Shown one piece after another: positions 2,904 to 53,809 of a stretch of DNA of 64,000 nt. Position 1 is the first letter of the stretch, and each line of letters starts with the position of its first letter. The DNA is from Candidatus Helarchaeota archaeon. Lineage in GTDB: Archaea > Asgardarchaeota > Lokiarchaeia > Helarchaeales > RDOG01. The DNA lies in the NCBI GenBank assembly GCA_019058315.1, contig JAHPZH010000004.1:448001-512000 (forward strand), written 5' to 3'. The notes beneath the pieces were generated by a model. The model did no database searches. It saw nothing but the letters and a program-made list of their open reading frames with translations, and was not told where the DNA came from. The position numbers were made by a program, and so were the translations under genes.

Positions 2904-2906
2904 TAT

Positions 2907-4871: not shown

Positions 4872-4965
4872 TATTTTTACTTTATTTTGTACCTGAAAAT
4901 AAATAAAAAGCTAAAAAAGAGTAGAAATGATTCTATGAATATTTTAAAATAGAATAAAAATAGAA

Positions 4966-6015: not shown

Positions 6016-6046
6016 TGAAAAAAATAAAAAATATTTATATTGTTTT

Positions 6047-7240: not shown

Positions 7241-7264
7241 TTAAATCACCTCTTATTCTTATTT

Positions 7265-7771: not shown

Positions 7772-7783
7772 ATTTCATCACCT

Positions 7784-8305: not shown

Positions 8306-8452
8306 AAGAACACCCCTTTTGAATCGATTTTATGATTTTTGTAGAATTTGTATACACCATTTTCTCTTTTTTAAGAGTGAAAGATAAATGAAAGTGATTG
8401 AATGAATTGATGAATTTAAAGAAAGGTGTATATCCTTTGAATTTGAAATCCT

Positions 8453-9352: not shown

Positions 9353-9384
9353 TCACCAGTTTTTCATTTTATTATTGATTTGAA

Positions 9385-12054: not shown

Positions 12055-12440
12055 TCTTTATCATTATTTTTTAGTTTCTTTATGGTTTGATTCATAAAAT
12101 TTATTATTTTTTCAATATCAAATGGTTTGTAAAGAATTCCATCGACTCCTAGATCTAGAGCTTCTTTGATAAGCTCTTCTACCGAATAGGCTGTCATCAT
12201 AACAATCTTAATAAATGGTCTTATATTTCTTACCCGCTTTAACGTCTCCACTCCGTCAATACCAGGCATCTTGATATCCAAAAAAGCCAGATCATAAAAC
12301 TTCTCACCAATCAACTCTATAGCTTGATAACCATCATTAGCAACATCTACATCAATATTGAAATCCTCAAAAATATCCTTCATAGTTTCACTTATTCCAA
12401 TATCGTCATCAACGATAAGTACATTAATTTTAACTGTCAT
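12051..12440 (-). CDS. Single-domain receiver (CheY-like) protein
   Basis: VDDD, LDIKMPG, MTAY, KPF; ATGA overlaps on both sides. Confidence 0.92.
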   Translation of the reverse strand: MTVKINVLIVDDDIGISETMKDIFEDFNIDVDVANDGYQAIELIGEKFYDLAFLDIKMPGIDGVETLKRVRNIRPFIKIVMMTAYSVEELIKEALDLGVDGILYKPFDIEKIINFMNQTIKKLKNNDKE

Positions 12441-13678
12441 TTCATATTCTCCTTTTTTCCAAATGGTATTCTAATAGTAATTGTTGTTCCTATATCTGAT
12501 TCACTTTCGACTCCTATCTCACCTTCATGTAATTCAATGATATTCTTGACTAAAGTTAATCCCAGTCCAATTCCATAGATTTTAGTACTAAAAAGTGGGT
12601 TGAATATTTTGTATAAGTTTATTTTCGGGATACCCATACCCGAGTCTTTGAATATTATTTCGACTAATGAATCATTTTTTTTGGTTTTTATCCCCAAATT
12701 TCCTCCGTTTGGCATAGCCTCAACAGAATTTTTAATAATATTTTGAAATACTTGATGAATTAAAAGTCTATCGATTTCTATTAACGGAAGACTATAATCC
12801 AAATTTAATTTTAATGCAATATTAGTAGGAAATTCGTAATCTTCTAAAAATTCTTTAATTAAGAGATTAATATCTCCCATTTCAAGATTTAATTTATTTA
12901 AGCTTGTTAAATTAAGTAAATGGGTTACTAATTTATTAGACCTTTCAACCTCCTTTTGCATCATTTTAAGATGTTTTCTAATTTTTTCATCCGAATTTTT
13001 AAGTCTTAAAGTTAGGTAATAGATGGAATTATTAATTACTCCAAGAGGATTTCTAATTTCATGCCCAATTTTCTCTGCAAGAATTCCTAAAGTTGCTAAT
13101 TTCTCCTTATATACATAGTCTTCAAAAAATGTTTCAAGTTTTTGGCTATGATATAATAATTCAAGGTGAGTTTCAACAAGCTCCTTGAACTTTCGAATTA
13201 ACTTTTCATATTTTTTAGTATAACTATTCTCTTTTAAATCAAGTACACAGATAGTGCCAAACACTTCTTCATCAGGCCAGAACAATGGAAAACCTAAATA
13301 GGAAATCATTCCTAGTTTAATGTCTGGATTATTATTCCAAACCTCATTTTTTAAAGCATTGGAAATTAATAACTTCTTTTTAGTCTTAATTACTGTCTCA
13401 CAATAAAGTCCCGCTAAAAGTTCCTTATTTCCTACCTTATATGGATTATTGGCTGTTTCGCTGGAGCAAAAAACTTTAATGTAAGGTTGTTCAACTTTCA
13501 TTATTAATGCTGCTGGGACTTGAATGATTTCTGCTAAAATATTTACAATTTCCTGCCATTTTTCAATTATTTTGTTATATATGATTATATTTTCTTTATT
13601 GAACAGCTTATTTGACAGTGTTTTGTTCCTATCTATAATAATTTCATTTTTATTAGTTATATCACTTTTAGCTTTTAT
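12437..13678 (-). CDS. GAF-HisKA-HATPase histidine kinase; start upstream of ATG 13501, probably non-AUG
   Basis: GAF core (YCETV...YLGFPLFWPDEEVFGTICVLD), H-box GHEIRNPL, G boxes. The frame is open for 59 codons upstream of 13501 and encodes the GAF N-terminal helix KWQEIVNILAEIIQVPAALI. It contains no ATG/GTG/TTG; ATA 13678 follows GGGGGGTTGA. Confidence 0.8.
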   Translation of the reverse strand: MKAKSDITNKNEIIIDRNKTLSNKLFNKENIIIYNKIIEKWQEIVNILAEIIQVPAALIMKVEQPYIKVFCSSETANNPYKVGNKELLAGLYCETVIKTKKKLLISNALKNEVWNNNPDIKLGMISYLGFPLFWPDEEVFGTICVLDLKENSYTKKYEKLIRKFKELVETHLELLYHSQKLETFFEDYVYKEKLATLGILAEKIGHEIRNPLGVINNSIYYLTLRLKNSDEKIRKHLKMMQKEVERSNKLVTHLLNLTSLNKLNLEMGDINLLIKEFLEDYEFPTNIALKLNLDYSLPLIEIDRLLIHQVFQNIIKNSVEAMPNGGNLGIKTKKNDSLVEIIFKDSGMGIPKINLYKIFNPLFSTKIYGIGLGLTLVKNIIELHEGEIGVESESDIGTTITIRIPFGKKENMK

Positions 13679-15146
13679 TCTTCAACCCCCCTTCAATCAT
13701 ATTTGGTAATTTAATTATAAAAGTCGTTCCTACTCCAACTTTGCTTTCGAATTCTATTGTACCTTTATGTAACTCAATTATATCTTTCACAATTGGCAAA
13801 CCCAATCCAATCCCTTTAGCTTTAGTACTAAAAAGTGGTTCAAATATCTTTTGATAATTTTCTTCTGGAATCCCTACCCCTGTATCTTCAAAATATAATT
13901 CTATCATATTATCAATTTTTTTCGTTTTAATAACAATAATACCACCTTTTGGCATAGCTTGGATTGAATTGGTGATTAAATTCTGAAAAACTTGTTGTAA
14001 TTTAATCGGATCTATGAGACATTTTGGCAATTTTGAATCTAAATCTAATTCTATAATTATCGATGCAGGAACATTAATGTTTGAAAGAGTTGCCTTAATT
14101 AATGAATTAATATCTCTCATTTCAAGGATTGGTGAACTTACTCTAGCAAAATCAAGTAAATCCTTTAAGATCCTGTTAGACTTCTCCACTTCTCTTTGTA
14201 ATATATTAAGATGTTTCCTGACTTTTTTGTCACCATTTTTAAATCTCATATTTATAAAATAAATTGAATTACTGATTACTCCCAGAGGATTACGAAGTTC
14301 GTGACCTACACTTCCTGCAAGTTTTCCCACGGCAGCTAATTTTTCCTTACGTATCAATTCTTTTTGAGCTTCCTTAAGTTCTTTTGTTCTTTCTTCTATT
14401 TTTGTCTCTAATTCTTCATTAAGAAGACGAAGTGCCACTTCCATGTTCTTCCTTTCTGTTATATCCCGCAAAGAAGCAATACACGCCCTCTCACCCTTCC
14501 AACCCGTCTTAACTACCCTCATCTCTACTATCTTGGTCTCACCTTTTCTACTAACAACATTTATTTCGGTATTTTCTCCTACTACAACCGGAAAACCGAA
14601 TAGTTCTCCTATTAGATTTTCCCTATTACGATCAAAAAGGGATTCTGAAGCAGGATTAGCAAAAAGAACTACTCCATTTTTATCTACAACTACAACGCCA
14701 TCTGAGTTTTTTTCAATGAGAGTTCGGAATTTATCTTCACTTTGTCTTAGTCTATGTTCAAGTTGTTTACGCTCGATAGATCGTATCAAAGTCGGTTTTA
14801 ATAAATATTCAATAAAATTTTCTTTGATTAAATAATCTTGTGCTCCTTCTTTTAATGCTCTAAATCCTAATTTTTCATCATCTAGAGCTGTCAATATTAT
14901 TATTGGTATATTCGGAGCATAATTATAGGTCTTTTTAAATGTTTCAAATCCATAACTATCTGGAAGAGTAAGGTCTAGTATAATTACATCAATATCGCTA
15001 TTGGCTAAAATTTTAAAAGCTTCAGATAAATTTGTTTTGTGGGTTAATTGAAAAAAATCCTCGTCAACTGATAATAATTCCTTTATTAATCTGGCATCTC
15101 CAGGATTATCTTCAACCAGTAATATCCTAATTAGTCTATCTTCCAT
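13668..15146 (-). CDS. Hybrid histidine kinase REC-PAS-HisKA-HATPase
   Basis: [23 protein letters not shown]; one PAS; H-box GHELRNPL; DTGVGI and GIGLGL. Confidence 0.92.
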   Translation of the reverse strand: MEDRLIRILLVEDNPGDARLIKELLSVDEDFFQLTHKTNLSEAFKILANSDIDVIILDLTLPDSYGFETFKKTYNYAPNIPIIILTALDDEKLGFRALKEGAQDYLIKENFIEYLLKPTLIRSIERKQLEHRLRQSEDKFRTLIEKNSDGVVVVDKNGVVLFANPASESLFDRNRENLIGELFGFPVVVGENTEINVVSRKGETKIVEMRVVKTGWKGERACIASLRDITERKNMEVALRLLNEELETKIEERTKELKEAQKELIRKEKLAAVGKLAGSVGHELRNPLGVISNSIYFINMRFKNGDKKVRKHLNILQREVEKSNRILKDLLDFARVSSPILEMRDINSLIKATLSNINVPASIIIELDLDSKLPKCLIDPIKLQQVFQNLITNSIQAMPKGGIIVIKTKKIDNMIELYFEDTGVGIPEENYQKIFEPLFSTKAKGIGLGLPIVKDIIELHKGTIEFESKVGVGTTFIIKLPNMIEGGLKNKS

Positions 15147-15257
15147 TTCTTTTTTTCCATTAATTTTTATTCAATAACCTATATACTTTTTTAAATTAAT
15201 TCTAAATCTTTCAGATTTACTCATAATTCAAACCATTTATTCAATTCATTTTTTTTA

Positions 15258-16778
15258 TTATTGTCTCTTGAATAATTCATCAATTTTGCCAATTTCCTCC
15301 ATTTCAATATGAGTTGGACTTCCAGCAATAATCCCGATTACATTTTTGAAAGGGTTACCAATATGTAATCCTTTATTATCAATGATAATTTCACGAATGT
15401 CTTTATCATGCATAGAACCACGCATTTTAAGGACTGCTAATCCCCTATGCATTTTTCCGTACATTTCAACATATCTAAGTAAGATAATAAGATCGGTTAT
15501 TGTGGATATATGCATTTCTGTAATGGAAGTGCCACCCATTAAAGTTGGAGTAGTAGCTGTGAAAAGTCCGGCAATTTCTTTTTGTTTTATAAATGAAGTT
15601 ATTCCAATTACGAATTCTCGGAAACTTTTTTTTGTAGAAACACGTTCTAAAGCAGACAAGCTATCAATTGCAATGCGTTCTGGCTTAAAATCATTTATAA
15701 CTCTTTTTAAATTTATTAAATGATCTTCTAAATTAGCACTTTCTGGATATACACAAACAACTTTAAGTTTGCCTTCTTCTTCAAATGGAACAAAATTTAT
15801 TCCCCAACCTAGTGCATTTCTAAAAAGTTGTTGTCGGCTCTCCTCAAATGCAAAATATATACAATTTTCTCCTCTTTCTAGTCCACCATTTATAAACATT
15901 GTAGACATGAGGGTTTTTCCAGTTCCTGTAGCACCTGAAATAAGAATGATTGAATCTCTATAAAATCCACCCCCACACATTTCATCTAATTCTTTTATAC
16001 CCGAATAAATACGAATATTTGAGGATTCTTGTTTCAACTCAATTGCGGAAAGTGGGATGACTATAATGCCTTCATTTGGTATAATTGTAAAAGGAAATTC
16101 TCCCTTTTGATGATAAGTTCCCCGAAATTTCAGAATTTCTACAGTGCGACGACGTTCTTCATCATCCAAAACATTACGTAAAATAACCACATTATCTGTA
16201 ACAAATTCTTCGACATCCAACCGTGTAACAGAACCATATTCGTCGATTCTCTCTGCTGTTAAAATAGATGTGACTTTTAATTTTTTTAAAGTTGAAGCTA
16301 ATCTAAATATTTCATCCCGTACAACTGAGTGATCTTTAAACTGAGAAAAAATTGCACCTAAAGAGTCTAAAGAAATTCGTTTTGCGTTAATTTTCTGGAT
16401 AGCATATGTAATTCTGGATAATAAAGCTTCCAAATCATAATCACCCGTTACAATTTTCTTCATTCCTGGTTCGGGAGATGCATTTACAAATAACCATTTA
16501 CCATTTCCCTCCCATTTTTCTATATCCCAATCAAAACCTAACATATTTTCGCGGATATCTTCAGGAGTTTCTTCGAAAGTAACAAAAACCCCATTTTCAT
16601 TTGATTTTATAATTCCCTCTGCAAGAAATTGAGCAGCAAAAACTGTTTTTGCGCTACCTGATGTTCCTGTAACGAGTGTAGTACGAAATTTCGGCAAACC
16701 TCCATCAGAAATTATATCAAAACCTGGAATTCCAGTAGGTATTTTTTGAATTTGTTTATTCTTTTTATCTTCCTTCAT
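15258..16778 (-). CDS. kaiC: Circadian-clock-type KaiC (double domain, KaiC3-like), copy 2
   Basis: CI Walker A GTSGSAKT and TFEE; CII GATGTGKT and AFEES; phosphosite segment SITEMHISTITD; KMRGS; A-loop-like tail PFKNVIGIIAGSPT. Confidence 0.95.
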   Translation of the reverse strand: MKEDKKNKQIQKIPTGIPGFDIISDGGLPKFRTTLVTGTSGSAKTVFAAQFLAEGIIKSNENGVFVTFEETPEDIRENMLGFDWDIEKWEGNGKWLFVNASPEPGMKKIVTGDYDLEALLSRITYAIQKINAKRISLDSLGAIFSQFKDHSVVRDEIFRLASTLKKLKVTSILTAERIDEYGSVTRLDVEEFVTDNVVILRNVLDDEERRRTVEILKFRGTYHQKGEFPFTIIPNEGIIVIPLSAIELKQESSNIRIYSGIKELDEMCGGGFYRDSIILISGATGTGKTLMSTMFINGGLERGENCIYFAFEESRQQLFRNALGWGINFVPFEEEGKLKVVCVYPESANLEDHLINLKRVINDFKPERIAIDSLSALERVSTKKSFREFVIGITSFIKQKEIAGLFTATTPTLMGGTSITEMHISTITDLIILLRYVEMYGKMHRGLAVLKMRGSMHDKDIREIIIDNKGLHIGNPFKNVIGIIAGSPTHIEMEEIGKIDELFKRQ

Positions 16779-17080
16779 TTTTTTTCACTCTTATTATCTG
16801 TTTTAGCTTGATTTATTAACTCCAAACCTACTAAAACCTTCTCTCTATCAGATAAATCACCAATAATCATTCGAAGTGGAGGAGGTAATTTTTTAATCAA
16901 AGTTGGTGTAGCTAATATTTTTTCATCCTCAGCTAATTGTGGACTTTCTAGAACATTAATAATTTTCAATTCATATTTTCCTTTTAAATCGGATTCACAT
17001 ATTTGACATAGATTCGAAATAGCTTTCTGGGACCTTGAACTATCACCTGTTATGTATAATCTTAAAATATATTTTTCCAA
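16775..17080 (-). CDS. kaiB: KaiB (KaiB3-like), copy 2
   Basis: YILRLYITG, PQLAEDEKILATPTLIKKLPPP, IIGDLSDREKVL; ATGA overlap with kaiC. Confidence 0.95.
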   Translation of the reverse strand: MEKYILRLYITGDSSRSQKAISNLCQICESDLKGKYELKIINVLESPQLAEDEKILATPTLIKKLPPPLRMIIGDLSDREKVLVGLELINQAKTDNKSEKK

Positions 17081-17129
17081 ATCAATTCACTAAGTTCATT
17101 TATTCTGTATTTTATTTCATTTACAATAT

Positions 17130-18653
17130 TTATTCGTTAAACATATCTCTAAATCGCTCAATTTCATCTTTAGTAAAATGTTGTGGAACTCCTGACAAAA
17201 TACCTGTGATATTTCTAAATGGTTTTCCTATATGCATCCCTTGATTATCAATAGTGAACTCTCGAATTTGTTTATCGTGTATAGATCCTCTCATTTTAAG
17301 TACTGTTATACCTCGCCGCATTTCTCCAAACATTTCTACATATCGAAGTAATATAATAGAATCTGTAATAGTTGATATGTGAGTCTCCGTTATAGAAGTG
17401 CCACCCATTAATGAAGGAGTAGTAGATGTAAAAAGACCTGCAATTTCTTGATGTTTTATAAACGATGTTATACCAATTACAAACTCACGAAATCCCTTGG
17501 GTATCGAAACTCGTTCGAGGGCAGAAAGACTATCCACTGCTATACGATTTGGTTTAAACTCTTGGATGATTTTCCTTATTTTAATAAGATGGTCTTCGAG
17601 ACCAGCAGTTTCAGGATATTCACAAACAACCTTAATTTTACCAAGTTTCTCCATTTCCTCAAAATTAATTCCCCAACCAATTGCATTTCTAAAAAGTTGT
17701 TCTCTACTTTCCTCAAAGGCAAATAATAGACATTTTTCACCATTTTTCGCACCACCAGCAATAAATTCGGTTACCATAAGTGTTTTACCAGTTCCTGTAG
17801 CACCTGATACTAGGATAATAGAATCTCGAAAGATTCCGCCACCACACATCCCATCTAAAGTGATATTGCCAGATGAAATGCGTACCTCAGAAGATTTTTG
17901 TTTTAATTCAATTGCAGAAAGTGGTATCACTATAATCCCTTGATTCGGAATAATTGTAAAGGGATATTCTCCTTTATTATGAGTTGCACCCCTGAACTTA
18001 AGTATCTCCATCGTTCTACGACGTTTTTCTCCTTCTAGAACATTTCTTAGAATTACCACGTTATCTGAAACAAATTCTTCTACACCATAACGAGCAATTT
18101 CACCATATTCTTGAATCCTTTCCGCTGTTAAAATAACCGTTACTCTCAATTTCTTAAAAGCTGAAGCAATACGGAAAAGTTCTTTACGAATATTTGTAGT
18201 ATCAGTGAATTGGGTAAAAATTGCGCTAATTGAATCCATAGCAACTCGTTTTGCTCCAACTTTATTAATGGCATGTTCAATACGAACTAAAAGAGCCCCT
18301 AAATTAAATTCTCCGGCTTCAATATTCTCAATTTCTGGAACTGGTGATGCATCTACAAAAACCCATTTTCCATCTTTTTCCCATCTAACTATATCAAAAC
18401 CTAGACTAATCATATTTCTTCTTATATCATTAGGGGATTCTTCAAAAGTAATAAAAACGCAATTAGCATTAAATTTTTCAATGCCTTTAGCAAGAAATTG
18501 TACAGCAAAGACTGTTTTAGCGCTACCTGAAGATCCCGTAACCAATGTTGTACGTTCTTTGGGAAGACCTCCATCGGAAATAATGTCAAACCCTGTTATT
18601 CCAGTTTTAATTTTTTCGACTGGTAATAGTTGTTCTATTATCATTTTTTTCAC
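17130..18653 (-). CDS. kaiC: Circadian-clock-type KaiC (double domain, KaiC3-like), copy 1
   Basis: GSSGSAKT/TFEES and GATGTGKT/AFEES; SITETHISTITDSIILLRYVE; KMRGS; tail PFRNITGILSGVP. Confidence 0.95.
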   Translation of the reverse strand: MKKMIIEQLLPVEKIKTGITGFDIISDGGLPKERTTLVTGSSGSAKTVFAVQFLAKGIEKFNANCVFITFEESPNDIRRNMISLGFDIVRWEKDGKWVFVDASPVPEIENIEAGEFNLGALLVRIEHAINKVGAKRVAMDSISAIFTQFTDTTNIRKELFRIASAFKKLRVTVILTAERIQEYGEIARYGVEEFVSDNVVILRNVLEGEKRRRTMEILKFRGATHNKGEYPFTIIPNQGIIVIPLSAIELKQKSSEVRISSGNITLDGMCGGGIFRDSIILVSGATGTGKTLMVTEFIAGGAKNGEKCLLFAFEESREQLFRNAIGWGINFEEMEKLGKIKVVCEYPETAGLEDHLIKIRKIIQEFKPNRIAVDSLSALERVSIPKGFREFVIGITSFIKHQEIAGLFTSTTPSLMGGTSITETHISTITDSIILLRYVEMFGEMRRGITVLKMRGSIHDKQIREFTIDNQGMHIGKPFRNITGILSGVPQHFTKDEIERFRDMFNE

Positions 18654-18663
18654 CTCTTTTTTT

Positions 18664-18945
18664 TTAATCTGTAAAAGTCTCTAAATCAAGTCCTAACAAA
18701 ACCTTGTCTTTATTAGAGAGATCACCTATGATTCTTCGTATTGGTGGAGGTAGTTCTTTAATTAATGCAGGTGTGGCGATGATTTTCTCATCCTCAGCTA
18801 ATTGTGGTCTTTCGAGAACATCAATTATCTCGATTTCATATTTATCCTTTAAATTTTCCTCACACATACGACGTAAGTTAATAATTGCTCTCTCAGATTG
18901 TGGCGTATGGCCTGTAATGTATAACCTCAACAAAGATTTATTCAT
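18664..18945 (-). CDS. kaiB: KaiB (KaiB3-like), copy 1
   Basis: LRLYITGHTPQS, IDVLERPQLAEDEKIIATPALIKELPPPIRRIIGDLS; GGAGGT RBS. Confidence 0.95.
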   Translation of the reverse strand: MNKSLLRLYITGHTPQSERAIINLRRMCEENLKDKYEIEIIDVLERPQLAEDEKIIATPALIKELPPPIRRIIGDLSNKDKVLLGLDLETFTD

Positions 18946-19025
18946 AAAATACCTCCATTTAAAGAAATTTTTTTATTTTTTGAAAAGTAATTTTTTAAAT
19001 TTAATTTAAACGCTAATTTTACCAT
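18942..19025 (-). CDS. Possible small ORF (27 aa, MVKLAFKLNLKNYFSKNKKISLNGGIL)
   Basis: GGAGGA lies 5 nt before ATG 19025, and the TGA overlaps the kaiB ATG (ATGA). Confidence 0.35.
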   Translation of the reverse strand: MVKLAFKLNLKNYFSKNKKISLNGGIL

Positions 19026-19026
19026 T

Positions 19027-19113
19027 TTAATCCTCCATTTGTATTTTAATTCTATTTTCATGTTCTGTCTCAATTTTTTTTGAATGATTTGATTTTCTAA
19101 ATATATTATTCAT
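19027..19113 (-). CDS. Possible small ORF (28 aa, [28 protein letters not shown])
   Basis: The ATG overlaps the kaiA3 stop (ATGAATAA), GAGG lies upstream, and the stop is 1 nt before the next sORF. Confidence 0.3.
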   Translation of the reverse strand: MNNIFRKSNHSKKIETEHENRIKIQMED

Positions 19114-20011
19114 AGATTTTTTCCTCGATAATTCTTTTATCCTCTTTTCTTCTGTCGGATTCGCTCCATAGAGATTGTTTTGCAATCATTGAGTATTTAC
19201 GATAATAAGATACTAAGTATCCCATAAGTTTGAGTGCTAAAAAATGCCCTTCCTCGGTATATACCACCGATTTCTGATAAGGGCTAGAATTAATCTTCTT
19301 TTTTAAAGCATGACTATGAATTTCTACGACATCTCTTGGTCCTGCATTTAAAAATCCCATTTCCTCAGCTATAGCTCTGAGTTGTTCGTTTGTATTATGT
19401 TTTACCTTATAGATCCGTTGCTCAATCGCCAATTCTATTAAATTTTCATATTTTTTAACTAATTTATAAAAATTATCTGGCAGGGATTCACGTAAAGGTG
19501 CTAAACCATAAAGACGAGCTGTGACAACAGTTTTAGGAAAATCTGACAAGCGTTCGAGTAATTCCAACTCATTCTGCTCTAACTTGCGTAATTCTATAGA
19601 CTCTAGTTTAACTAACAAGTGTTTTCTTTCAATGGAATGTCGTAATGCGCTCTTTAAAATTGAAGTATCTACCAATCCCTTTATTAAATAATCTTGCGCT
19701 CCCTCTCTTATTGCCTGGATCGATAGATCGTCATCATTTGTTCCAGTCAATATTATAATTGGCACTTTTGGAACGATAGAATTTATTCTAGAAAATGTTT
19801 TAATCCCCTGACTATCTGGTAGTCCAAGATCAAGCAAAATTATATCAAAAGTTTCCTCTTCAAGATATTTTATAGCTTTTGATAGAGAATTTGCGCACTT
19901 TAAATTTGCGTCTAGCTTTGTATCGGATAATAATTCCTTTATAAGTCGTATATCTGCTAAGTTATCTTCAATTAATAAAATTTTATGCTCTATATTATCC
20001 ATAAACTTCAC
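19106..20011 (-). CDS. kaiA3: KaiA3-like protein: receiver domain + KaiA-type C-terminal helical domain
   Basis: Intact REC ([24 protein letters not shown]). C-terminal [11 protein letters not shown]...[21 protein letters not shown] parallels KaiA VVEIH.....DYRLTLIDVIAHLCEMYRRS. The gene lies directly upstream of kaiB-kaiC. Confidence 0.85.
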
Positions 20012-20454
20012 TCCAATGGTAATTTAACAATTGTAAACCAAAAATCTTCAATTGATTTTATTACTCTAATGAACTTTTCAAGTTCAACCGGTTTTGTCAC
20101 ATAGGCGTTAGCATGTAAATTATAACTTTTAAATACATCTTCTTCGGCTCTAGATGTCGTTAAAACAACTATAGGAATTCTCTTAAGGTTATCGTTACTT
20201 TTTATTTCTGCTAAAACCTCACGTCCATCCTTTTTAGGTAGGTTAAGATCAAGGAGAATCAAGTCTGGCCGAGGTGCATATAAATATTTACCTTTTTTGA
20301 GTAGAAAATCTAAGGCTTCAACACCATTATAGGCAACATGTAAATTATTAATCACTTTACCCTCTTTTAAGGCCTCTTGTGTTAATCTTACATCTCCTTG
20401 GTTATCTTCTACCAATAATATCTCAATATTTCTAACTGTATTTTTATCATTCAT
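20008..20454 (-). CDS. Rcp1-like single-domain response regulator
   Basis: [53 protein letters not shown]. Confidence 0.92.
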
Positions 20455-21905
20455 AATTTTTCATCCTTCAATAAAATTTCATTTTTAATTTCAATTCTTT
20501 CTGGAATTGTGAAATAAAACGTTGCTCCCTCCCCAAGTTGCGAATCCACCCAAATTTTCCCCTTATGACGTTCAACAATTTTCTTACATAGAGCTAGACC
20601 TATCCCAGTCCCTGGATATTCTTCTCTAGTGTGTAATCTCTGGAATATAACAAAAATACGTTCAAAATATTCTGGATCTATACCAATACCATTATCTTGA
20701 ACTGAAAAAATCCAATTCTCATTTTTATTCTCAGCTGAGATGAGAATTCGTGGAGGTGCTTTATTACGGAACTTAATAGCATTGCTAATAAGATTTTGAA
20801 ATAGTTGTTCCATCTGTGATCCATCAGCCATAACTTCAGGTAAAGAATTTCGGATAATTATGGCTGAATTCTCTTCGATTAATTTTGTCAAATTATTAAG
20901 TGCTCTATCCAAAATTTTATCGCAATCAACTCGATCAAAAGGTTTACCTCTTGTTCCCACTCTTGAGTAAGTTAATAAATCATTAATAAGTTGTTTCATT
21001 CTGTTTGTCCCATCAACAGCATAATAAATGAAATCATCTGCTTCGTCATCAAGTTTACCTTTATAACGCTTTGCTAGAAGCTGAACATAACTTGAAATCA
21101 TTCGTAAGGGTTCTTGTAAGTCGTGAGAAGCTATATATGCGAATTGTTCTAACTCTTTATTTGAAATTTCTAACCTATTTAAAATGATTTTTAATTTTTC
21201 CTCTGCTCTCTTACGATCGGATATATCTATTCCTACTCCTATCAGAAATATATCTTTATGTATTTCCTTATATTTTCCCATAAAGTAAAAAGGAGTTGAA
21301 ATACCGTTTTTTGATATAAAATTTATTTCAAAATTTAATCTCCCTTTATCAAAAACTTCTTTTAATTTATCATTTAGTATATTTTTCTCTAAAAAAAAAT
21401 CAAGGATGTTCATATTTGAAATTTCTTTTAAAGAATACCCAGAAATTTTTTCTAAGTTTTTATTCCACCTTATAAGTCTTCTATTTTTATCAATTATAAA
21501 AAAAATACCTGGTAAACTATTTATTATAAACTTAGATAGATTTTTTTCTCTTTGTAAATCTTTTTTCATATGGTTACGAATTCTTTCTTTAGAGTGTTCC
21601 AGTTCCAATGTTAGGGATAACATTCCTTTATTTGTTTCTGTCAGTTCCGTTTGTAAAGTCTGTATGGTATTTTCTGCTTCCTTAAGTTTTCTTTTTAATT
21701 CTTTGACGCTCATAGTTAATACTTCTTGAATGTTTCGAAGTTCCAGGGTACGTTGCTCGACTTGCTGTTCTAATTTCTCATTAGCTTTTTCCAATTCCAA
21801 TGTCAAAACCATAATTCCCTTATTAGTTTCCTCCAATTCTATTTGTAAGGAGCGAACTATATTTCTCTCTTCTTGCAATTGTTTTTGTAATTTATTATTG
21901 CTCAT
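20451..21905 (-). CDS. Histidine kinase with Cph1/bacteriophytochrome-type transmitter, one PAS and an N-terminal coiled coil with two ETNKG motifs
   Basis: H-box [33 protein letters not shown]; no chromophore-binding GAF/PHY; coupled to the Rcp1-like gene. Confidence 0.9.
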
Positions 21906-22141
21906 AGAACACCCCGCATCACAATTTCTCCAGTTCTATCACCGATTGAGGCGAGATTTGACTCATTAAGCTCAGTCAGTAAAAAAAATATGGTATTTTT
22001 TTGTCCTTTAAGTCGATTTTTTAATTTTTTAATGTTCATTAAAATCCCTAACATATTAAAAAGAATTTTCTATCTTTATATAAATCTAATAATATTTTTT
22101 GTAAAATTGAATAAGTAGAACTATATTTTTTCGAAATCAAT

Positions 22142-22963
22142 TTAATTTTCTCCATTCTTAATCTGTTCTTCATTAATAGGAAGTTTAATTGTGAAAATAG
22201 AACCCCTATTAAATCTACTTTTAACTTGTATTGTTCCATTATGTTGCTCAATAATATATTTCGCTATTGGCAGCCCCAACCCCATACCTTTAACTTTAGT
22301 GCTGAAAAGCGGCTCAAATATTCTTTTCAAATTCTCCTTTGGTATGCCCGCACCCGTATCTTTAATTTTTATTTCAATTATATTATTTTTAATAAGAGTC
22401 TTTATCTCTAAAACTCCTTCTTCTTGCATTGCTTGAATGGCATTAATAATGATATTTTGAAAAGCTTGTTGAATTTTTAAAGGATCTAAACTAATTAATG
22501 GTAAATTTTCACCAAGATTTAACAATACTTCAATATTACCATTTATGAGAGTATTGGCTATTGAATTTTTAATTAATAAGTTTATATTACCCTTTTCTAT
22601 ATTAGGTTCCTTTACTATTGCAAAAAAAAGTAGATCGGTGATTATTCTATTTGCCCGAATCACTTCTTTTTGAATAATATTAAGGTGTTTAATTATTTTC
22701 TGATCCACATCTTTAAGTCTCATATTTAAGTAATAAACTGAATTACTAATAACTCCAAGGGGATTCCGTAGCTCATGTCCAACACTTCCTGCAAGCTTTC
22801 CGATCACTGCTAATTTTTCCTTTGAAAACAATTCGTCCTTAGTGCGATCCAACTCCAATGTTAAAGCAACTATTCCACGGTTAGTCTCATCAAGTTCTTT
22901 CTGTAAATAATGAATATTTTCATTTGCCATTCTAAGCTTTTCCATTAATTCGCTATTGTTCAT
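22142..22963 (-). CDS. Sensor-less histidine kinase with N-terminal ETNRG coiled coil (stressosome-associated)
   Basis: ELDETNRGIVALTLELD, GHELRNPL, DTGAGI, GMGLGL; ATGA overlap with the PP2C gene. Confidence 0.88.
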   Translation of the reverse strand: MNNSELMEKLRMANENIHYLQKELDETNRGIVALTLELDRTKDELFSKEKLAVIGKLAGSVGHELRNPLGVISNSVYYLNMRLKDVDQKIIKHLNIIQKEVIRANRIITDLLFFAIVKEPNIEKGNINLLIKNSIANTLINGNIEVLLNLGENLPLISLDPLKIQQAFQNIIINAIQAMQEEGVLEIKTLIKNNIIEIKIKDTGAGIPKENLKRIFEPLFSTKVKGMGLGLPIAKYIIEQHNGTIQVKSRFNRGSIFTIKLPINEEQIKNGEN

Positions 22964-23964
22964 ATTTTTCCCCTCACAACGACCACTGTTGCATCATCAT
23001 CATCTTTTGCTAAAGAACGTAATAAAACTTGAGCAATTTTCGTAGCTGATTCATTTTGAAGATAATAAAAATTATCCCAATTCCAATGTGATATTATACC
23101 ATCTGAATGAAGAATCATGATATAACTAGGATCCCAATGTTTCTCATTGATTACTGGATTTGGGCTTTTAATCCCAAGTATTCCACGTCTTATAATAAAG
23201 TCTATTTTTTCTGAAGAACCAATAACCCTCACTGTAATGTTTCCAATGCTAGCAAGAGTGATTTTTTGCTTTGTCCAATCAAAACGTGCTAGAGCCATTA
23301 CAACGCCACGTGTAGCACTACATGTACGTCCAGTGCCACGAAAAATTTGGTCTAATGGCTGGTCATAATGTTTCATTATATAATTCCATGCAGTTTTAGC
23401 AGCGCGATGTGCAAATTGTCCATGTCCTAGACCATCAATTACTCCTACTAATGCGCTGTGATTCCATCGTTTAATTATAAATGAGTCTCCATTAAGACTC
23501 ATCCCTAATCTTGGACGTGATGCACCATCTATTAAAAAAGGACAGGAACCCGATATTCGCTTATTTTTTATATAATATTTACAAATAATATGCGTATATC
23601 CCGGCTTTGAACTAATTTCAAGTTCGTCCATTATTCTATTAACAATTCCTAAACCATAACCCAAGCTTTTCTTTGTTGAATACCCATTAGTAATTGATTT
23701 TTCAATATTATTAAATCCTGGTCCACTATCCACGGATTCAATTTGAACACCTTGCTTTTTACCATTATTAAGGGAGCTAATTATCAATTCTCCTTTATTA
23801 GCATGTTTTATCAAATTAGTAGCAAGTTCATTAATAACTAGTTCAATATTTTCAGATGTTAATGTATCAAATCCTATAGCAACGCCTAATTGTTTTACTA
23901 TTTGGCGTGCGAGTAAAATATCGCTTCGATTTTTTATTATTATAATTTCTTTGATTTTTTTCAC
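22960..23964 (-). CDS. rsbX: RsbT-like HATPase fused to RsbX-like PP2C/SpoIIE phosphatase
   Basis: N-terminal ELATNLIKHA, DSGPG, GYST..SLGYGLG; C-terminal NGDS, IDGLGHG, HSDGI, DDATVVV. Confidence 0.85.
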   Translation of the reverse strand: MKKIKEIIIIKNRSDILLARQIVKQLGVAIGFDTLTSENIELVINELATNLIKHANKGELIISSLNNGKKQGVQIESVDSGPGFNNIEKSITNGYSTKKSLGYGLGIVNRIMDELEISSKPGYTHIICKYYIKNKRISGSCPFLIDGASRPRLGMSLNGDSFIIKRWNHSALVGVIDGLGHGQFAHRAAKTAWNYIMKHYDQPLDQIFRGTGRTCSATRGVVMALARFDWTKQKITLASIGNITVRVIGSSEKIDFIIRRGILGIKSPNPVINEKHWDPSYIMILHSDGIISHWNWDNFYYLQNESATKIAQVLLRSLAKDDDDATVVVVRGKI

Positions 23965-23971
23965 GCTACTT

Positions 23972-24379
23972 TTATTTAAGCCATTTAATAATAATCACTT
24001 GTGTTCCTTTACCTACCTTGGAATCAATCTCCATTTCATCCATGAGTCGTTTAGATCCAGGTAATCCCATTCCTAGTCCATTACCAGTACTATAACCTTC
24101 TTGCATTGCTAATTCAATATCTTGGATGCCCGGACCATTATCCTTAAAAATTAACTTGAGCCCAACCTTATTTTCAGAATTAACTTTCATCCATATCATT
24201 TTTCCCGAACCAGCAAATTTATAAATGTTCCTAGCTAGCTCAGAAACTGCTGTAATTATTCTAGTAACGTCTGTCATACCAAATCCCATCGCATTAGCCG
24301 CATTACGTGCCATTCTCCTTGCATTTATTATATCCGTTTCAGAACTAATAGTAACTATATTTTGAGTTGTTAGGGTCAT
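23972..24379 (-). CDS. rsbT: Stressosome Ser/Thr kinase RsbT
   Basis: ITAVSELARNI, DNGPGI.DIELAMQEGYST..GLGMGLPGSKRLMDE. Confidence 0.95.
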   Translation of the reverse strand: MTLTTQNIVTISSETDIINARRMARNAANAMGFGMTDVTRIITAVSELARNIYKFAGSGKMIWMKVNSENKVGLKLIFKDNGPGIQDIELAMQEGYSTGNGLGMGLPGSKRLMDEMEIDSKVGKGTQVIIIKWLK

Positions 24380-24753
24380 AATTGATGATCACTGCCTATT
24401 AAGTCAATAGCACTATCAACATCAAGCGATGTGATTGCATTACCTAATGTTAGTCCCAATTGTGTTGTTGTAATGGCAACACTAGGACGCATTCCTGCTA
24501 TAACTGTCACACCGCCCATCAAGGCTACCATTTGAGCTGTTTCCGCTATTGTACGGGCAAAAAATGAATCTACTGTCTCAACCATTGAAATATCCATGAC
24601 TAATCCCTTCACCGTATATTTCTCCATCGCATCCAACACTTTCTCCTGTAATTCAGAAACGGAACTATCATCCGGATCGGAGGGCACCGTAACTATCAAT
24701 ATTTCACGAATCTTATTTACTGAAATGCTCTCAAACTTCATTCTATACATCAC
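24376..24753 (-). CDS. rsbS: Stressosome STAS protein RsbS (likely start ATG 24741)
   Basis: STAS with phosphoacceptor Ser in VETVDSFFAR, GMRPSVAIT; located between rsbR and rsbT. Confidence 0.93.
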   Translation of the reverse strand: MMYRMKFESISVNKIREILIVTVPSDPDDSSVSELQEKVLDAMEKYTVKGLVMDISMVETVDSFFARTIAETAQMVALMGGVTVIAGMRPSVAITTTQLGLTLGNAITSLDVDSAIDLIGSDHQL

Positions 24754-24770
24754 CCACTAACTTAAACATT

Positions 24771-26042
24771 TCATTTTTTACTATTTTTGTTAATTATTTT
24801 CAATTCCAGTACTTCTAAAGCAAGTTCTAATCCTTCAGCTAAAGATTTACATGTACGGACACCCGAGAGATCAATACCAAGATGAATTAATGTTTGCGCA
24901 ATAGCAGGATTTATTCCAGTTAAAACTACTTTTGAGCCTAGTAAACGAACTGCATTTATTGTATCAACGAGATGTTGGGCAATTCCAGTATCAATAGCTG
25001 GGACACCCGTAATATCTAATAAAGCGACTTTAGAGTGTGTATCTACGATTCTTTGTAGTAAATGTTCCATAATTTGCTGTGTGCGTTCGCTATCTAACAT
25101 GCCTATTATTGGAGTAATTACAACGCCTTCCCAGATTTGTATGACTGGAGTAGAAGATTCAAGTATATCTTCAGCTCTCTTCTCTAATGATTTTCGAAGG
25201 GTGATATCTGAAGCCACTGACGCAAGTGCGGTGATATTTGCGCCCCCAGTAGTAGATGTTGACATGGAGAAATATCTTTTTTGTCCATCTTCCCCAATAA
25301 ATTCAACTTCATAGCCAAGTTCGGGGGTTTTTGTTTTAAAAACTTTTTTGAATATCTCTAATAGTCGATTAGACTCATTAGGAGATACTAAATCAATTAA
25401 TGATGTCTCGACAACATCTTGATATTTGAAACCTAATCGATCGCTTAATGCTTTGTTACTATAAAGAATTTGGCCATTTGTATTGTGTAATATTAAAGCA
25501 TCTTGTGTGTTTTTTACTAAAGTTTGATATTTTTCCACATTTAACATTAGCGTTGAAATATCAATAAAATGTCCAACAGTCTGACCCAGAGATTCTAAAT
25601 TTTTAACATCCTCATTGGTATATCCACCTGCTTTATTAGCAACAGATATCGTGCCAATAGGATTTCCATGATGTCGTAAAGGAATACCTAAAAAAGAATT
25701 GATAGGTGGATGCCCTTCTGGAATACCTCCACTTTCTGGATCTGTAGATGGGGAATTAGAGATGTAACTCTTATTAGTTCTTATAGGAACCAACCAAAGA
25801 TGTTTGCCAACTAGAGCTGATGGTGGGAATACAACTTCTTTTATTGGCATTTTACATGCTTCCCAACCCATCCCATTTATCCCAAGGGTATGATAAGAAC
25901 CTTCCGACATAATGCCAGTTTGACCATACTCACTTTTTGTTAGTTCTACCGCATAATCTATAAGGATTTGTCCTTGTTCATAAATATCTTTTTTACTTCT
26001 CATTTTTGCTATTAAAATATCATTTTTTTCATTATTACTCAT
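24771..26042 (-). CDS. rsbR: RsbR-family sensor: GAF-PAS-STAS
   Basis: GAF (SNSPSTDP..GGIPEGHPPI.SFLGIPL), PAS, then STPVIQIWEG..PIIG.LDSER and DITGVP.IDT.IAQHL. Confidence 0.9.
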   Translation of the reverse strand: MSNNEKNDILIAKMRSKKDIYEQGQILIDYAVELTKSEYGQTGIMSEGSYHTLGINGMGWEACKMPIKEVVFPPSALVGKHLWLVPIRTNKSYISNSPSTDPESGGIPEGHPPINSFLGIPLRHHGNPIGTISVANKAGGYTNEDVKNLESLGQTVGHFIDISTLMLNVEKYQTLVKNTQDALILHNTNGQILYSNKALSDRLGFKYQDVVETSLIDLVSPNESNRLLEIFKKVFKTKTPELGYEVEFIGEDGQKRYFSMSTSTTGGANITALASVASDITLRKSLEKRAEDILESSTPVIQIWEGVVITPIIGMLDSERTQQIMEHLLQRIVDTHSKVALLDITGVPAIDTGIAQHLVDTINAVRLLGSKVVLTGINPAIAQTLIHLGIDLSGVRTCKSLAEGLELALEVLELKIINKNSKK

Positions 26043-26108
26043 TCATGTTTCCTCCATTTTTTAAATTTGTTTCATAAAATTAATTTCGTTTCTTATTATC
26101 CCCTCTTT

Positions 26109-28202
26109 CTACGCTATATTATTACTAATTATTTTCATATCTAGCATACTTAATGAAAGTCGAATTCCTTCCATTAATGACTTACATGTAAAAATTCCAG
26201 AGAGATCAATACCTAAATAAACTAAAGTCTGAGCAATAGAGGGTTTTATGCCAGTCAAAACTACGTGTGTACCTAATAAACGAACAGCATTAAATGTATC
26301 GATTAAATGTTGGGCAATTGCAGTGTCTACAGTAGGGACACCTGTAATATCCACCAAAGCGACCTTTGAATGTGTTTCTACAACACGTTCTAATAATTGA
26401 TCCATAATTTGTTGAGCTCTCTCGCTATCCAATGTGCCTATAATCGGTATTACGACAATGCCTTCCCATACTTGAACCACAGGTGTGGAAGCTTCGAATA
26501 TAGCTGCTGTTCTCAGTTCTATTTCCTTAATGCGAGACATATCCCTGAGAGACTCAACTATTCCGATTATTTCGCCATCAATATTCCGATATGGTTGTGC
26601 AGTTATAATACAAGGGATTATAGTACCATCTTTGCGTATATGTTCAACGGGTAGTTCTAATCGATCTTTACCACCTAATATCTGAACTAATGTACATTCA
26701 GGAGTATGACATAAAGGGCTTTTTATTGCATCAAAGCAATTTATTCTTAATGATTCATCTATGCTTAATCCTGATAGTTCTGTAAATGTTTTATTTATTC
26801 GAAGCACATTGAAATTCTTGTCAATTATACGTATCCCGTCTGCTGCGGTATTAAAAACAGCATTCGTTGTATCAATTTCTCTTTTTATATTTTCATTTTT
26901 TTCGGTGAGAATATCCCTCATAAACTTCATGTTAAGGACTAATTCATTAAGAATCTGTTCTAACAATCCAATTTCCCCAGAATCGGTAATCTTCAGTTTC
27001 TGATCAAGATCTCCACCAGCAACAGATGCTATCTGCTTAATAATAATTGATAATCGATTCTGAACGGATTCAGACATATCTAACTCTTTAAGTGGTTTTT
27101 CTTCTTCTTTAAATGCACTAAATGGTTGATTTGAAACATATTTCAAGGGATCTTCACCTGTAAAAGGATGAATCCCACTGAGACTAGGTTTTTTTTCTAT
27201 TTCAAACCCAAGCGATTTTGCAAGCTCTCGATTTGCATCTATCTCAAAGACGTTTTCAACAATGTCTGAATAATTAACTTTTACTGATAATTGGGACCAT
27301 CTTTGCATCTGTGAAAGCATCCATATTCCATATTCGACCCATGGGAAAGGAGCAAAATCAATTCTATCAGGAATAACATGATTTTTCCCCTTACCATCTG
27401 GAAAATCTCCTGATAAAGCTTGTGCTACTGGTATATAATTTTCTTGATTTATATAATATGGAGCAGAGATTTCCTTAGCGATTTCCTTCCTTTCCTCAAC
27501 TTTCGCATTGTGCAATATCCATTCCGCCTCCAGAACGCTTTTCAGCATTATTTTGTATGTATTGGGATACTTTTCTATAAACTTCTGTTTAATTGCAAAG
27601 GCGCAGCAAGGATGACCTTGCCATATCTCCTTAGAAAGCGTATGAATGAATCCTATTTTTTGATAGACTGCTAATTGATTATATGGTTCTGCGGTAAAAT
27701 AACCATCTAATTTGCCCTTTTTTAGATAATATGGCATCAAAGATGGGGAAACTTCTTCCATTTTTACGTCTTTGAGAGGATTTAAACCATTTGCTGCTAA
27801 AAAATAACATAATAAGTAGTAATGCATAGAAAAGCGATATGGTATTCCAAAAGTGAATCCTTTCATATCCTTTACAGATTTTATTCCCAAATGTCTATTC
27901 GAGAGAGTTAAAGCTTGACCATTTATATTTTGCATAGTTACTAGTTTAATTTCTGATTTTTTACCATCTAATCCCAAATGGCAAGCAAGGGGCATTGGCG
28001 AAAGCATATGTGCCGCATCGATATAATCATAAACTAATAATTCCTTGACACCACTCCAACCAGGGGGTTTGATCATTTCCACATTAAGTCCGTTTTTTTC
28101 AAAAATACCATGACTATGAGCATAAATGAGTGGAGCAGAACAAGTAATTGGTATAAATCCAATTTTTAGGTCTGGTTTTTCAATTTTATAATTAATCAAC
28201 AT
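26109..28202 (-). CDS. rsbR: RsbR-family sensor: CynA/NrtA/CmpA-type solute-binding domain + HAMP-like linker + PAS + STAS
   Basis: EKPDLKIGFIPITC, AHMLSPMP, SMHYYLL, EPYNQ, WQGHPCC, DRIDF.PFPW with no signal peptide; GDLDQKL...GEIG.L linker; PAS; STAS GTLDSERA / VPTVDT. Confidence 0.88.
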   Translation of the reverse strand: MLINYKIEKPDLKIGFIPITCSAPLIYAHSHGIFEKNGLNVEMIKPPGWSGVKELLVYDYIDAAHMLSPMPLACHLGLDGKKSEIKLVTMQNINGQALTLSNRHLGIKSVKDMKGFTFGIPYRFSMHYYLLCYFLAANGLNPLKDVKMEEVSPSLMPYYLKKGKLDGYFTAEPYNQLAVYQKIGFIHTLSKEIWQGHPCCAFAIKQKFIEKYPNTYKIMLKSVLEAEWILHNAKVEERKEIAKEISAPYYINQENYIPVAQALSGDFPDGKGKNHVIPDRIDFAPFPWVEYGIWMLSQMQRWSQLSVKVNYSDIVENVFEIDANRELAKSLGFEIEKKPSLSGIHPFTGEDPLKYVSNQPFSAFKEEEKPLKELDMSESVQNRLSIIIKQIASVAGGDLDQKLKITDSGEIGLLEQILNELVLNMKFMRDILTEKNENIKREIDTTNAVFNTAADGIRIIDKNFNVLRINKTFTELSGLSIDESLRINCFDAIKSPLCHTPECTLVQILGGKDRLELPVEHIRKDGTIIPCIITAQPYRNIDGEIIGIVESLRDMSRIKEIELRTAAIFEASTPVVQVWEGIVVIPIIGTLDSERAQQIMDQLLERVVETHSKVALVDITGVPTVDTAIAQHLIDTFNAVRLLGTHVVLTGIKPSIAQTLVYLGIDLSGIFTCKSLMEGIRLSLSMLDMKIISNNIA

Positions 28203-50187: not shown

Positions 50188-50196
50188 AAAAACATG

Positions 50197-51891: not shown

Positions 51892-51905
51892 AGAACCATT
51901 TCCTA

Positions 51906-53799: not shown

Positions 53800-53809
53800 T
53801 AAAAACTTA

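Follow-up and report, generated by a model that had tools for sequence, protein, structure and literature searches.

A stretch of 64,000 nucleotides from contig JAHPZH010000004.1 of assembly GCA_019058315.1 (positions 448,001-512,000; referred to as the window, with all coordinates below counted within it) carries a kaiA3-like gene followed by two kaiB-kaiC pairs in a Helarchaeota-like Asgard archaeon. We read this cluster as a resident phosphorylation-cycle module of the KaiA3-KaiB3-KaiC3 type, which was obtained as a bacterial cassette and whose kaiB-kaiC pair subsequently underwent a tandem duplication; the probability of this reading is estimated at about 0.72. The parts are identified and intact, their linkage is conserved, the host is an Asgard archaeon and the cassette is foreign to it. 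A KaiA3-KaiB-KaiC-type cluster at 15258-20011 had been proposed in a preliminary description, and was confirmed by open reading frames (ORFs), family models, conserved residues and linkage. All five ORFs were recovered at the coordinates given in Table 1, head to tail on the minus strand.

Most KaiC homologues of archaea have a single domain, and KaiB accompanies few of them; published surveys report KaiB homologues in four archaeal genera only and no KaiA-type gene in Archaea (PMC5520375; PMC8113500; PMC11372060). As far as these surveys go, the cluster is the first archaeal Kai set found with a KaiA-type activator. The kind of system is already known. Its occurrence in Archaea is new, as are the tandem duplication of kaiBC behind one kaiA3 and the collinear link to stressosome-like genes. 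Because all three parts are intact in an Asgard genome, the question of an archaeal Kai clock can be directly tested by reconstitution.

The KaiC and KaiB proteins

Each of the two KaiCs contains two PF06745 domains. NF006799 was matched by KaiC-a with 722.5 bits and by KaiC-b with 725.8 bits (cut-off 408), and TIGR02655 with 661 and 646.8 bits, respectively (cut-off 546), while the scores of both proteins were far under the cut-offs for ArlH/FlaH. In an alignment to T. elongatus KaiC in native numbering the equivalents of T426, S431 and T432 are T422, S427 and T428 in KaiC-a and T420, S425 and T426 in KaiC-b. The catalytic glutamate motifs FEE[ST] and FAFEES as well as the CII Walker A motif GATGTGKT are kept in both. 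The CI Walker A of both proteins reads G-x-S-G-S-A-K-T, i.e. Ala instead of Gly precedes Lys. This variant, GxxGSAKT, is common to 53 of the 62 KaiA3-linked KaiCs and occurs in none of the cyanobacterial KaiC1 or other Asgard KaiCs. Thus we consider it a trait of the subfamily and not a sign of decay; it may influence how fast the CI domain of these proteins hydrolyzes ATP. KaiA3-linked KaiCs further share the tail consensus G-I-[LI]-x-G...E-x-x-R-x-x-x-[LM]-F, which both KaiCs of the window retain, KaiC-a as E-x-x-R-x-x-x-M-F and KaiC-b as E-x-x-K-x-x-x-L-F. The preliminary description had portrayed both KaiCs as full double-domain proteins with a T426/S431/T432-equivalent segment and an A-loop-like tail, and these features hold for both paralogues, with K for R in the tail of KaiC-b. 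Its claim of intact Walker A and EE motifs stands for the EE pairs and the CII Walker A, which are canonical, and is to be qualified for the CI Walker A by the Ala variant typical of the family.

The best PDB match of both KaiCs was 8ZN5 with 730 and 703 bits, which is a reconstructed ancestral KaiC-beta (Mukaiyama et al. 2025, PMC12081879). Extant cyanobacterial KaiCs followed with about 590-620 bits and Rhodobacter KaiC with about 306 bits. The two KaiBs matched PF07689 (cut-off 27) with 103 bits and an E-value of 6e-30 for KaiB-a, and 101 bits and 3e-29 for KaiB-b. NF006798 (cut-off 110) was cleared by KaiB-b with 121 bits and narrowly missed by KaiB-a, which at 108.7 bits was 1.3 bits short. 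By the domain model both proteins are KaiBs, in line with the preliminary description, which had called them canonical. Within the window KaiC-a and KaiC-b are 68% identical, KaiB-a and KaiB-b 65%.

KaiC-a is 67-75% identical to KaiA3-linked KaiCs, with up to 74% to a KaiC from Anaerolineae, and for both window KaiCs the identity to KaiA3-linked and KaiC3 sequences is 68-74%, while the identity of the window KaiCs to KaiC1 of Microcystis, Lyngbya and Gomphosphaeria is 56-58%. The corresponding values for KaiB-a are 60-76% with KaiA3-linked KaiBs and 55-56% with cyanobacterial KaiB1. In a maximum likelihood tree of 77 KaiC rows, which included no KaiC2 reference, both window KaiCs fell into one clade with all KaiA3-linked KaiCs, cyanobacterial KaiC3 and a long-branch, nested KaiC1; the Shimodaira-Hasegawa-like approximate likelihood-ratio test (SH-aLRT) gave 98 for this clade. 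Because KaiC1 nests within the same large clade, 'KaiC3' is paraphyletic on the tree. The clade and the higher identity to KaiA3-linked or KaiC3 proteins than to KaiC1 agree with the KaiC3/KaiB3 type that had been predicted.

The KaiA3-like protein

The kaiA3-like ORF comprises 301 residues from a GTG at 20011; the copy in the sequence collection starts at an ATG at 20002 and counts 298. The receiver domain matched PF00072 with 75 bits and has the acidic pocket E15-D16, the phospho-acceptor D61, T89 and K111. It is 50% identical over 123 residues to the receiver of the downstream hybrid kinase (13668-15146), so one kinase may serve both receivers. A word-indexed search yielded 25 homologues sharing the C-terminal domain, mostly fused to a REC domain. 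Columns invariant among them spell RDVV.H and EE...L.LMG.L...Y, and the protein from the window holds the motif DVVEIH plus a second motif of 10 residues. No match to PF07688, PF21714 or PF08673 was found in it at E-values up to 10; unlike it, the canonical KaiAs examined all carry PF21714 and PF07688.

Because a Foldseek search with the full-length AlphaFold2 model (predicted local distance difference test, pLDDT, 86.5) returned receiver domains alone, the C-terminal domain was modeled separately, with a pLDDT of 86 and a predicted template modeling score of 0.77. The ten best PDB matches of this model in Foldseek were all KaiA C-terminal domains (5jwr, 1q6a, 1v2z, 1r8j, 4g86 and 5n8y) with probabilities of 0.92-1.00, template modeling scores of 0.47-0.62 and weak E-values of 0.05-0.3. 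The Foldseek comparison with the KaiA C-terminal domain, which had been suggested as a check, thus ranked KaiA chains first. VIA-align, which is independent of Foldseek and covered 48,161 chains, also placed three KaiAs at the top: 5c5e with Z 10.2, a root-mean-square deviation of 3.1 Å and 101 aligned residues, 1r5q with 10.2, 2.4 Å and 89, and 5jwr with 9.6, 2.7 Å and 99. Next came RsbR N-terminal domains with Z of 9.0 and 8.4; no RsbU N-domain chain was in the list, an absence that carries no evidential weight. The preliminary description had let the REC protein end in a KaiA-like helical bundle. The fold matches uphold the KaiA-like bundle, but it does not form the very end of the protein, as about 30 charged residues follow.

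Part of the gap between this domain and KaiA is closed by two bacterial loci. In L002 (Anaerolineae) and L046 (Nitrospirota) an additional REC protein, encoded ahead of an additional kaiB-kaiC pair, passes PF07688 with 22.4 and 24.7 bits, respectively, at a cut-off of 22.2. The stretch that passes was matched by the C-terminal domain from the window in BLASTP with an E-value of 5e-8 for L002 (residues 176-264) and 6e-5 for L046. Judged from these sequences, there is a transitive link from the window domain to KaiA. An hhalign comparison with canonical KaiA C-terminal domains was collinear over 89-104 columns at a marginal P of 0.033; it placed VVEIH over ILEIH and the second, 10-residue motif over ILAHLGEMYRR.

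A complex of two KaiA3 C-terminal domains with the tail of KaiC-a was predicted with a score of 0.33, against 0.00 for the best of three controls. Of 80 solved complexes, 58 attain the mark applied, as do 2 of 110 mismatched pairs; at scores of 0.60 or less it is reached by 7 of the 80 solved complexes and by both mismatches. At least 56% of the contacts were common to the runs, and the partner had a pLDDT of 36 or more. Because a complex of KaiA with a KaiC peptide has already been solved, the pass may reflect memory. The model weakly suggests that the KaiA3 C-terminal domain binds the KaiC-a tail.

Host, residence and origin of the cluster

The genome is a metagenome-assembled genome (MAG) of 5.79 Mb in 12 contigs, 94% complete and with an estimated contamination of 6.61%. 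It encodes a true actin (448 bits), for which none of 14 control prokaryotes had a match, and the nearest named actins are those of the Candidatus Helarchaeota MAGs Hel_GB_A (95% identity) and Hel_GB_B (91%). At least nine genes of Ras/Arf/Rag (Gtr1/RagA)-type GTPases, an unusual density, lie within the 64 kb on both sides of the cluster (2907-8257 and 49678-58375). Paralogues of the Rag-like GTPase beside the array were found on three further contigs of this genome and in all 20 relatives searched. DUF835 and DUF7347 regulators are present as well, with REC-DUF835-wHTH proteins at 29645-30766 and 50197-51891. The actin and the flanking GTPase genes bear out the Asgard host that had been presumed.

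The DNA of the cluster occurs in a single DNA run, a sediment metagenome and possibly the source sample; no RNA run is listed for it. The Logan assembly of this run contains a contig of 23.9 kb that covers the window from 5940 to 22500 with no differences and an even depth of about 17.5, so that GTPase genes, kinases, both kaiBC pairs and kaiA3 stand on one contig, although its reads may equal those of the window itself. The GC content at third codon positions (GC3) is 0.16-0.28 in the kai genes and 0.19-0.23 in the flanking host genes; the GC content of 61 bacterial linked kaiC genes is 0.44-0.66. Because the GC3 of the kai genes equals that of the host and the Logan contig joins both, contamination is very unlikely; the residence of the genes has been long enough for amelioration.

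The KaiA3 domain was found in one of 400 genomes of the phylum, i.e. in this genome alone, and in none of 90 high-quality ones. KaiB is strongly matched in ten further genomes of the class; from six of these the adjacent full-length KaiC was included in the tree, where the six form a separate clade (SH-aLRT 96). These other Lokiarchaeia KaiCs (L085-L092; G275, G150, G277, G276, G162, G273) are 42-50% identical to those of the window, or 57% for one partial copy, and end before the A-loop and tail region. Their sequences are consistent with KaiA-independent systems. Acquisition of the window cassette from bacteria is the simplest account; the rarity of the domain in the phylum and the collinearity with bacterial loci (see below) back the bacterial origin that had been put forward. 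Because the base of the clade of KaiA3-linked KaiCs is a polytomy, the donor phylum cannot be named. In a free quick tree KaiC-a and KaiC-b did not group together. Constraining them to be sisters improved the log-likelihood by 7.9 units over that tree, and the constrained tree was not rejected by the approximately unbiased test (P 0.63). The result suggests that the pair was duplicated in tandem long ago within this lineage, although an amino-acid bias due to low GC, which both proteins have in common, could draw them together on the tree. Separate acquisition of the two kaiBC pairs was considered and found no support, given the better likelihood of the sister-constrained tree.

Outside the cluster the same genome has a single-domain gene of the KaiC family (G000:C7:55151-55849), which scored 257 bits with PF06745, above either half of the double-domain KaiCs, and about ten weaker KaiC-like genes. 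A contig labeled Candidatus Deferrimicrobium, a bacterium (L106, DATKTP010000170.1), encodes an actin 95% identical to that of the window genome and is probably a mis-binned Asgard contig.

The KaiA3 family and the extended cassette

A scan of one genome per species returned 165 relatives of the C-terminal domain; linkage was counted in the loci of the best 80 of these. Carriers among these 80 are Roseiflexus, Chloroflexaceae, twelve Microcystis species, Lyngbya, Gomphosphaeria and members of several bacterial phyla, including magnetotactic Nitrospirota, Desulfobacterota, Verrucomicrobiota, Acidobacteriota and Planctomycetota. Microcystis and Roseiflexus are among the KaiA3 carriers named by Köbler et al. 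2024 (PMC11372060). The KaiA3 of the window is 37-45% identical over about 270 residues to the proteins of Microcystis, Gomphosphaeria, Lyngbya and Roseiflexus. kaiB directly follows kaiA3 in 78 of the 80 loci, and a full kaiC comes next in 61. In the twelve Microcystis loci no kaiC adjoins kaiA3-kaiB, an exception already described by Köbler et al. 2024 (PMC11372060). The KaiA3 cassette is thus spread over at least 165 species-level genomes, many of them of non-phototrophic anaerobes, compared with five non-cyanobacterial genera listed in 2024 (PMC11372060).

The conserved unit extends beyond the kai genes. The stand-alone receiver (20008-20454) has homologues in 19 loci. They are 60-74% identical and directly upstream of kaiA3 in L069, L013 and L003, weaker (42-48%) in the same position in L011 and L005, and 69% identical in L014, where one kinase gene intervenes. 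The core of the upstream kinase (20451-21905) is 57-63% identical to the gene at the same position in L069, L013, L003 and L014. In 21 bacterial loci the gene that immediately follows kaiC encodes a full-length homologue of the hybrid kinase. The order kinase-receiver-KaiA3-KaiB-KaiC-kinase is collinear with L069, L013, L011, L003, L005 and L014. The upstream kinase-receiver pair and the downstream hybrid kinase, both of which recur in several bacterial phyla, are concrete candidates for input and output of KaiA3 systems.

Locus L069 (uncultured bacterium, GC 0.56; 1128-10005) is collinear with the window from 13668 to 28202 over about 13 genes. It begins with genes for an RsbR-like STAS protein, an RsbS-like protein, an RsbT-like protein (49% identical), a PP2C and an RsbW-like protein, then continues with kinase, receiver, KaiA3, KaiB, KaiC, kinase and receiver. 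Thus the stressosome-like genes of the window may have come with the cassette. The gene order suggests an en-bloc transfer of an island of stressosome and Kai genes; L069 is the only one of the 80 loci in which Rsb-like genes are linked to the kai cassette.

Two further arrangements were observed among the relatives. Just upstream of the KaiA3 set, L002 (2417-5500) and L046 (2651-5505) have a second set of a REC-KaiA-like gene, kaiB and kaiC, and the KaiCs of these second sets branch as the sister group of cyanobacterial KaiC1 (SH-aLRT 97). Such sets may stand midway between systems of the KaiA3 type and canonical KaiABC. In P0014, P0015 and the protein of L057 a PAS domain takes the place of REC before the KaiA3-type domain, so more than one kind of sensor is combined with the KaiA-like domain. 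In L057 (1314-4897), a 5.4-kb contig with a GC content of 0.39 that is labeled Thermoplasmata, the one other archaeal label encountered, by its bin alone, the gene for this CBS-PAS protein ending in a KaiA3-type domain is followed by kaiB (75% identical) and by a kaiC split into two frames.

Layout of the locus

The kai genes are closely spaced, with 160 nucleotides between kaiA3 and kaiB-a, 10 between kaiB-a and kaiC-a and 49 between kaiC-a and kaiB-b, while the stop of kaiB-b overlaps the start of kaiC-b by 4 nucleotides. Upstream, the gene of the PAS kinase overlaps the receiver gene by 4 nucleotides, and the stop of the latter overlaps the start of kaiA3 by 4 nucleotides. The hybrid kinase gene starts 111 nucleotides downstream of kaiC-b. 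The cluster is embedded in a 22-kb single-strand array of kinases, receivers and Rsb-like genes (Table 1). The stressosome-like set consists of two RsbR-like STAS proteins, an RsbS-like STAS protein, an RsbT-like kinase and a kinase-PP2C fusion.

Table 1. Features of the kai locus and its neighborhood in window coordinates.
Feature	Coordinates	Strand	Evidence
kaiA3-like gene: receiver, linker helix, KaiA-type four-helix C-terminal domain, charged tail	19106..20011	-	ORF, PF00072, 25 homologues, AlphaFold2 model
REC domain of KaiA3, residues ~9-125	19637..19987	-	PF00072 at residues 11-119
KaiA-like C-terminal helical domain of KaiA3, residues ~173-272	19196..19495	-	Foldseek, VIA-align, BLASTP to L002 protein
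kaiB-a, 93 residues	18664..18945	-	PF07689
kaiC-a, 507 residues, double-domain	17130..18653	-	PF06745 x2, NF006799, TIGR02655
kaiB-b, 101 residues	16775..17080	-	PF07689, NF006798
kaiC-b, 506 residues, double-domain	15258..16778	-	PF06745 x2, NF006799, TIGR02655
Stand-alone receiver protein, 148 residues	20008..20454	-	PF00072
Coiled-coil/PAS histidine kinase, 484 residues, candidate input kinase	20451..21905	-	Pfam PAS, HisKA, HATPase_c
REC-PAS-HisKA-HATPase hybrid kinase, 492 residues, candidate output/feedback kinase	13668..15146	-	Pfam
Stressosome-like partner-switching genes	22960..28202	-	Pfam
RsbT-like switch kinase, within the stressosome-like gene set	23972-24379		

Proposed mechanism

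We suggest that the transferred unit comprised kinase, receiver, KaiA3, KaiB, KaiC and hybrid kinase, possibly together with the upstream stressosome-like genes. In analogy to the KaiA3B3C3 system of Synechocystis, KaiC hexamers would autophosphorylate on the Ser/Thr pair in CII. The dimeric KaiA-like domain would bind KaiC by holding its tail, i.e. the A-loop and the E..R/K...[LM]F motif, and stimulate it by favoring the kinase state. KaiB would then bind phosphorylated KaiC and withdraw KaiA3, upon which KaiC would dephosphorylate. Because KaiA3, unlike canonical KaiA, has a true receiver with D61, and because a tightly coupled kinase-receiver pair lies upstream, phosphotransfer from the neighboring kinases probably controls the cycle.

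KaiA3B3C3 cycles in vitro for Synechocystis (PMC11372060) and Cyanothece (PMC12081879), and the three parts are present here in the form that oscillates in these two cyanobacteria. By this analogy it is plausible that they suffice for a self-sustained or damped oscillator; any rhythm could be free-running or of the hourglass kind. In a sediment anaerobe the module may also be an hourglass or a non-rhythmic switch. A more far-reaching proposal, which we offer as a speculation more apt to fail than to hold, is that the cassette keeps time in a sediment Asgard archaeon, either as a free-running clock or as an hourglass. Its pace or phase would be set by phosphotransfer from the co-transferred kinase onto the KaiA3 receiver, with an additional stressosome-like input, possibly by docking of the RsbT-like kinase on the KaiA/RsbU-type domain. 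If true, it would be the first KaiA-dependent clock in Archaea and would provide the long-sought input pathway of KaiA3-type systems, one independent of light.

Weighing of the alternatives

Several observations count against our reading of the cluster as a KaiA3-KaiB3-KaiC3-type module. The C-terminal 167 residues of KaiA3 gave no relevant match in Pfam (E-values up to 10) or among PDB sequences, either as a single sequence or as a profile of 22 homologues. For helical bundles a VIA-align Z below about 13 can mean a common arrangement alone, so the fold evidence by itself is moderate. With full-length canonical KaiA the family profile produced only a spurious match of 12 columns in hhalign. 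The tail of KaiC-b carries Lys at a near-invariant Arg position. The closest relatives, of the same family and order and 82-94% complete, have no cluster, which fits gain here or loss there. Concerning function, a daily light cue may be absent at the sediment source, and because many carriers are anaerobes (Anaerolineae, Dehalococcoidia, Desulfobacterota) the role of the family may not be circadian.

In the most serious alternative the same proteins do not form a timer but a non-rhythmic phosphorylation switch or signaling hub, which would integrate signals from two-component systems and the stressosome and so drive a response to stress or of metabolism. The setting of the cluster within the 22-kb one-strand array speaks for it, as do the sediment source and the fact that most of the 165 carriers are non-phototrophs; moreover, stress roles were proposed for KaiBC in Legionella and Pseudomonas (PMC11372060), and a role as signaling hubs for KaiC-like ATPases in archaea (PMC5847659). 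Yet both paralogues keep every residue required for an ordered Ser/Thr phosphorylation cycle as well as the KaiA-binding tail, and both KaiA3B3C3 systems assayed to date oscillate in vitro (PMC11372060, PMC12081879). The two roles, switch and damped timer, do not exclude each other. Overall we regard a switch without a timer as possible, though the less expected outcome.

We give little credence to the idea that the C-terminal domain is an RsbU-N-type docking domain for the RsbT-like kinase at 23972-24379, which would make the protein part of a stressosome and its adjacency to kaiBC incidental. According to Köbler et al. the KaiA C-terminal domain and the RsbU N-terminal domain have the same fold (PMC11372060), the relative from L046 has a weak, sub-threshold match to RsbU_N (PF08673; 15.6 bits, E 0.019), and Rsb-like genes lie upstream both in the window and in L069. 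On the other hand, linkage to kaiB in 78 of 80 loci stands against linkage to Rsb genes in one, the proteins of L046 and L002 score higher on the KaiA model than on RsbU_N and exceed the KaiA cut-off, and the top fold matches are KaiA chains. Even less probable, to the point of being negligible, is bacterial DNA misjoined or misbinned into an Asgard MAG. The contamination estimate of the MAG speaks for it, as do the bacterial nearest homologues of the kai, upstream kinase, receiver and Rsb-like genes. However, GTPases typical of Asgard archaea occur on both flanks with paralogues across the genome and its relatives, a second assembler joined GTPase and kai genes in one contig of even depth, and the kai genes have the GC3 of the host while every bacterial kaiC has a GC content of at least 0.44. 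Contamination and mis-assembly were rejected on these grounds. Taken together we favor the view that a KaiA3-KaiB3-KaiC3-type module of bacterial origin resides in this archaeon.

Comparison with known systems

The single-domain KaiC-like ATPases of archaea (ArlH/FlaH, GvpD and hubs), as far as the work of Makarova et al. 2017 is related in PMC5847659, belong to the same RecA/KaiC superfamily, whereas the KaiCs of the window are double-domain proteins above the KaiC equivalog cut-offs. With the N-terminal domain of RsbU, which binds RsbT in Bacillus, the KaiA3-like protein shares the fold class of the KaiA C-terminal domain and the Rsb-like neighbors; it differs by having no PF08673 match and no PP2C fusion and by its linkage to kaiBC. 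The KaiC2/KaiB2 hourglass systems of Rhodobacter sphaeroides and Rhodopseudomonas palustris are similar in that kaiB-kaiC occurs outside cyanobacteria and possibly serves as an hourglass. Yet these timers, like the other Lokiarchaeia KaiBC pairs, are without KaiA, while the window has KaiA3.

Common to the window and KaiABC of Synechococcus elongatus PCC 7942 are the double-domain KaiC with equivalents of T426, S431 and T432, the A-loop, a KaiB of the fold-switch family and, as the best structural match, the KaiA-type helical domain. Canonical KaiA combines a pseudo-receiver (PF21714) with PF07688, whereas the protein of the window has a true receiver and no direct PF07688 match. The KaiCs of the window are 56-58% identical to KaiC1 and have Ala before Lys in the CI Walker A.

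The closest counterpart is the KaiA3-KaiB3-KaiC3 system of Synechocystis, with Sll0485 as the experimentally studied KaiA3 ('group III'; PMC11372060, PMC12081879). The window cluster differs from it by the archaeal host, the sediment habitat, one kaiA3 for two tandem kaiB-kaiC pairs, and its setting in a single long array that also encodes the upstream kinase and receiver, the hybrid kinase and the stressosome-like proteins. Both have the architecture of a REC domain plus a KaiA-like domain and the gene order kaiA3-kaiB-kaiC. With the KaiA3-type copies of bacteria and cyanobacteria the window shares 60-76% identity in KaiC and KaiB, the same KaiC clade, the variant of the CI Walker A and the tail motif.

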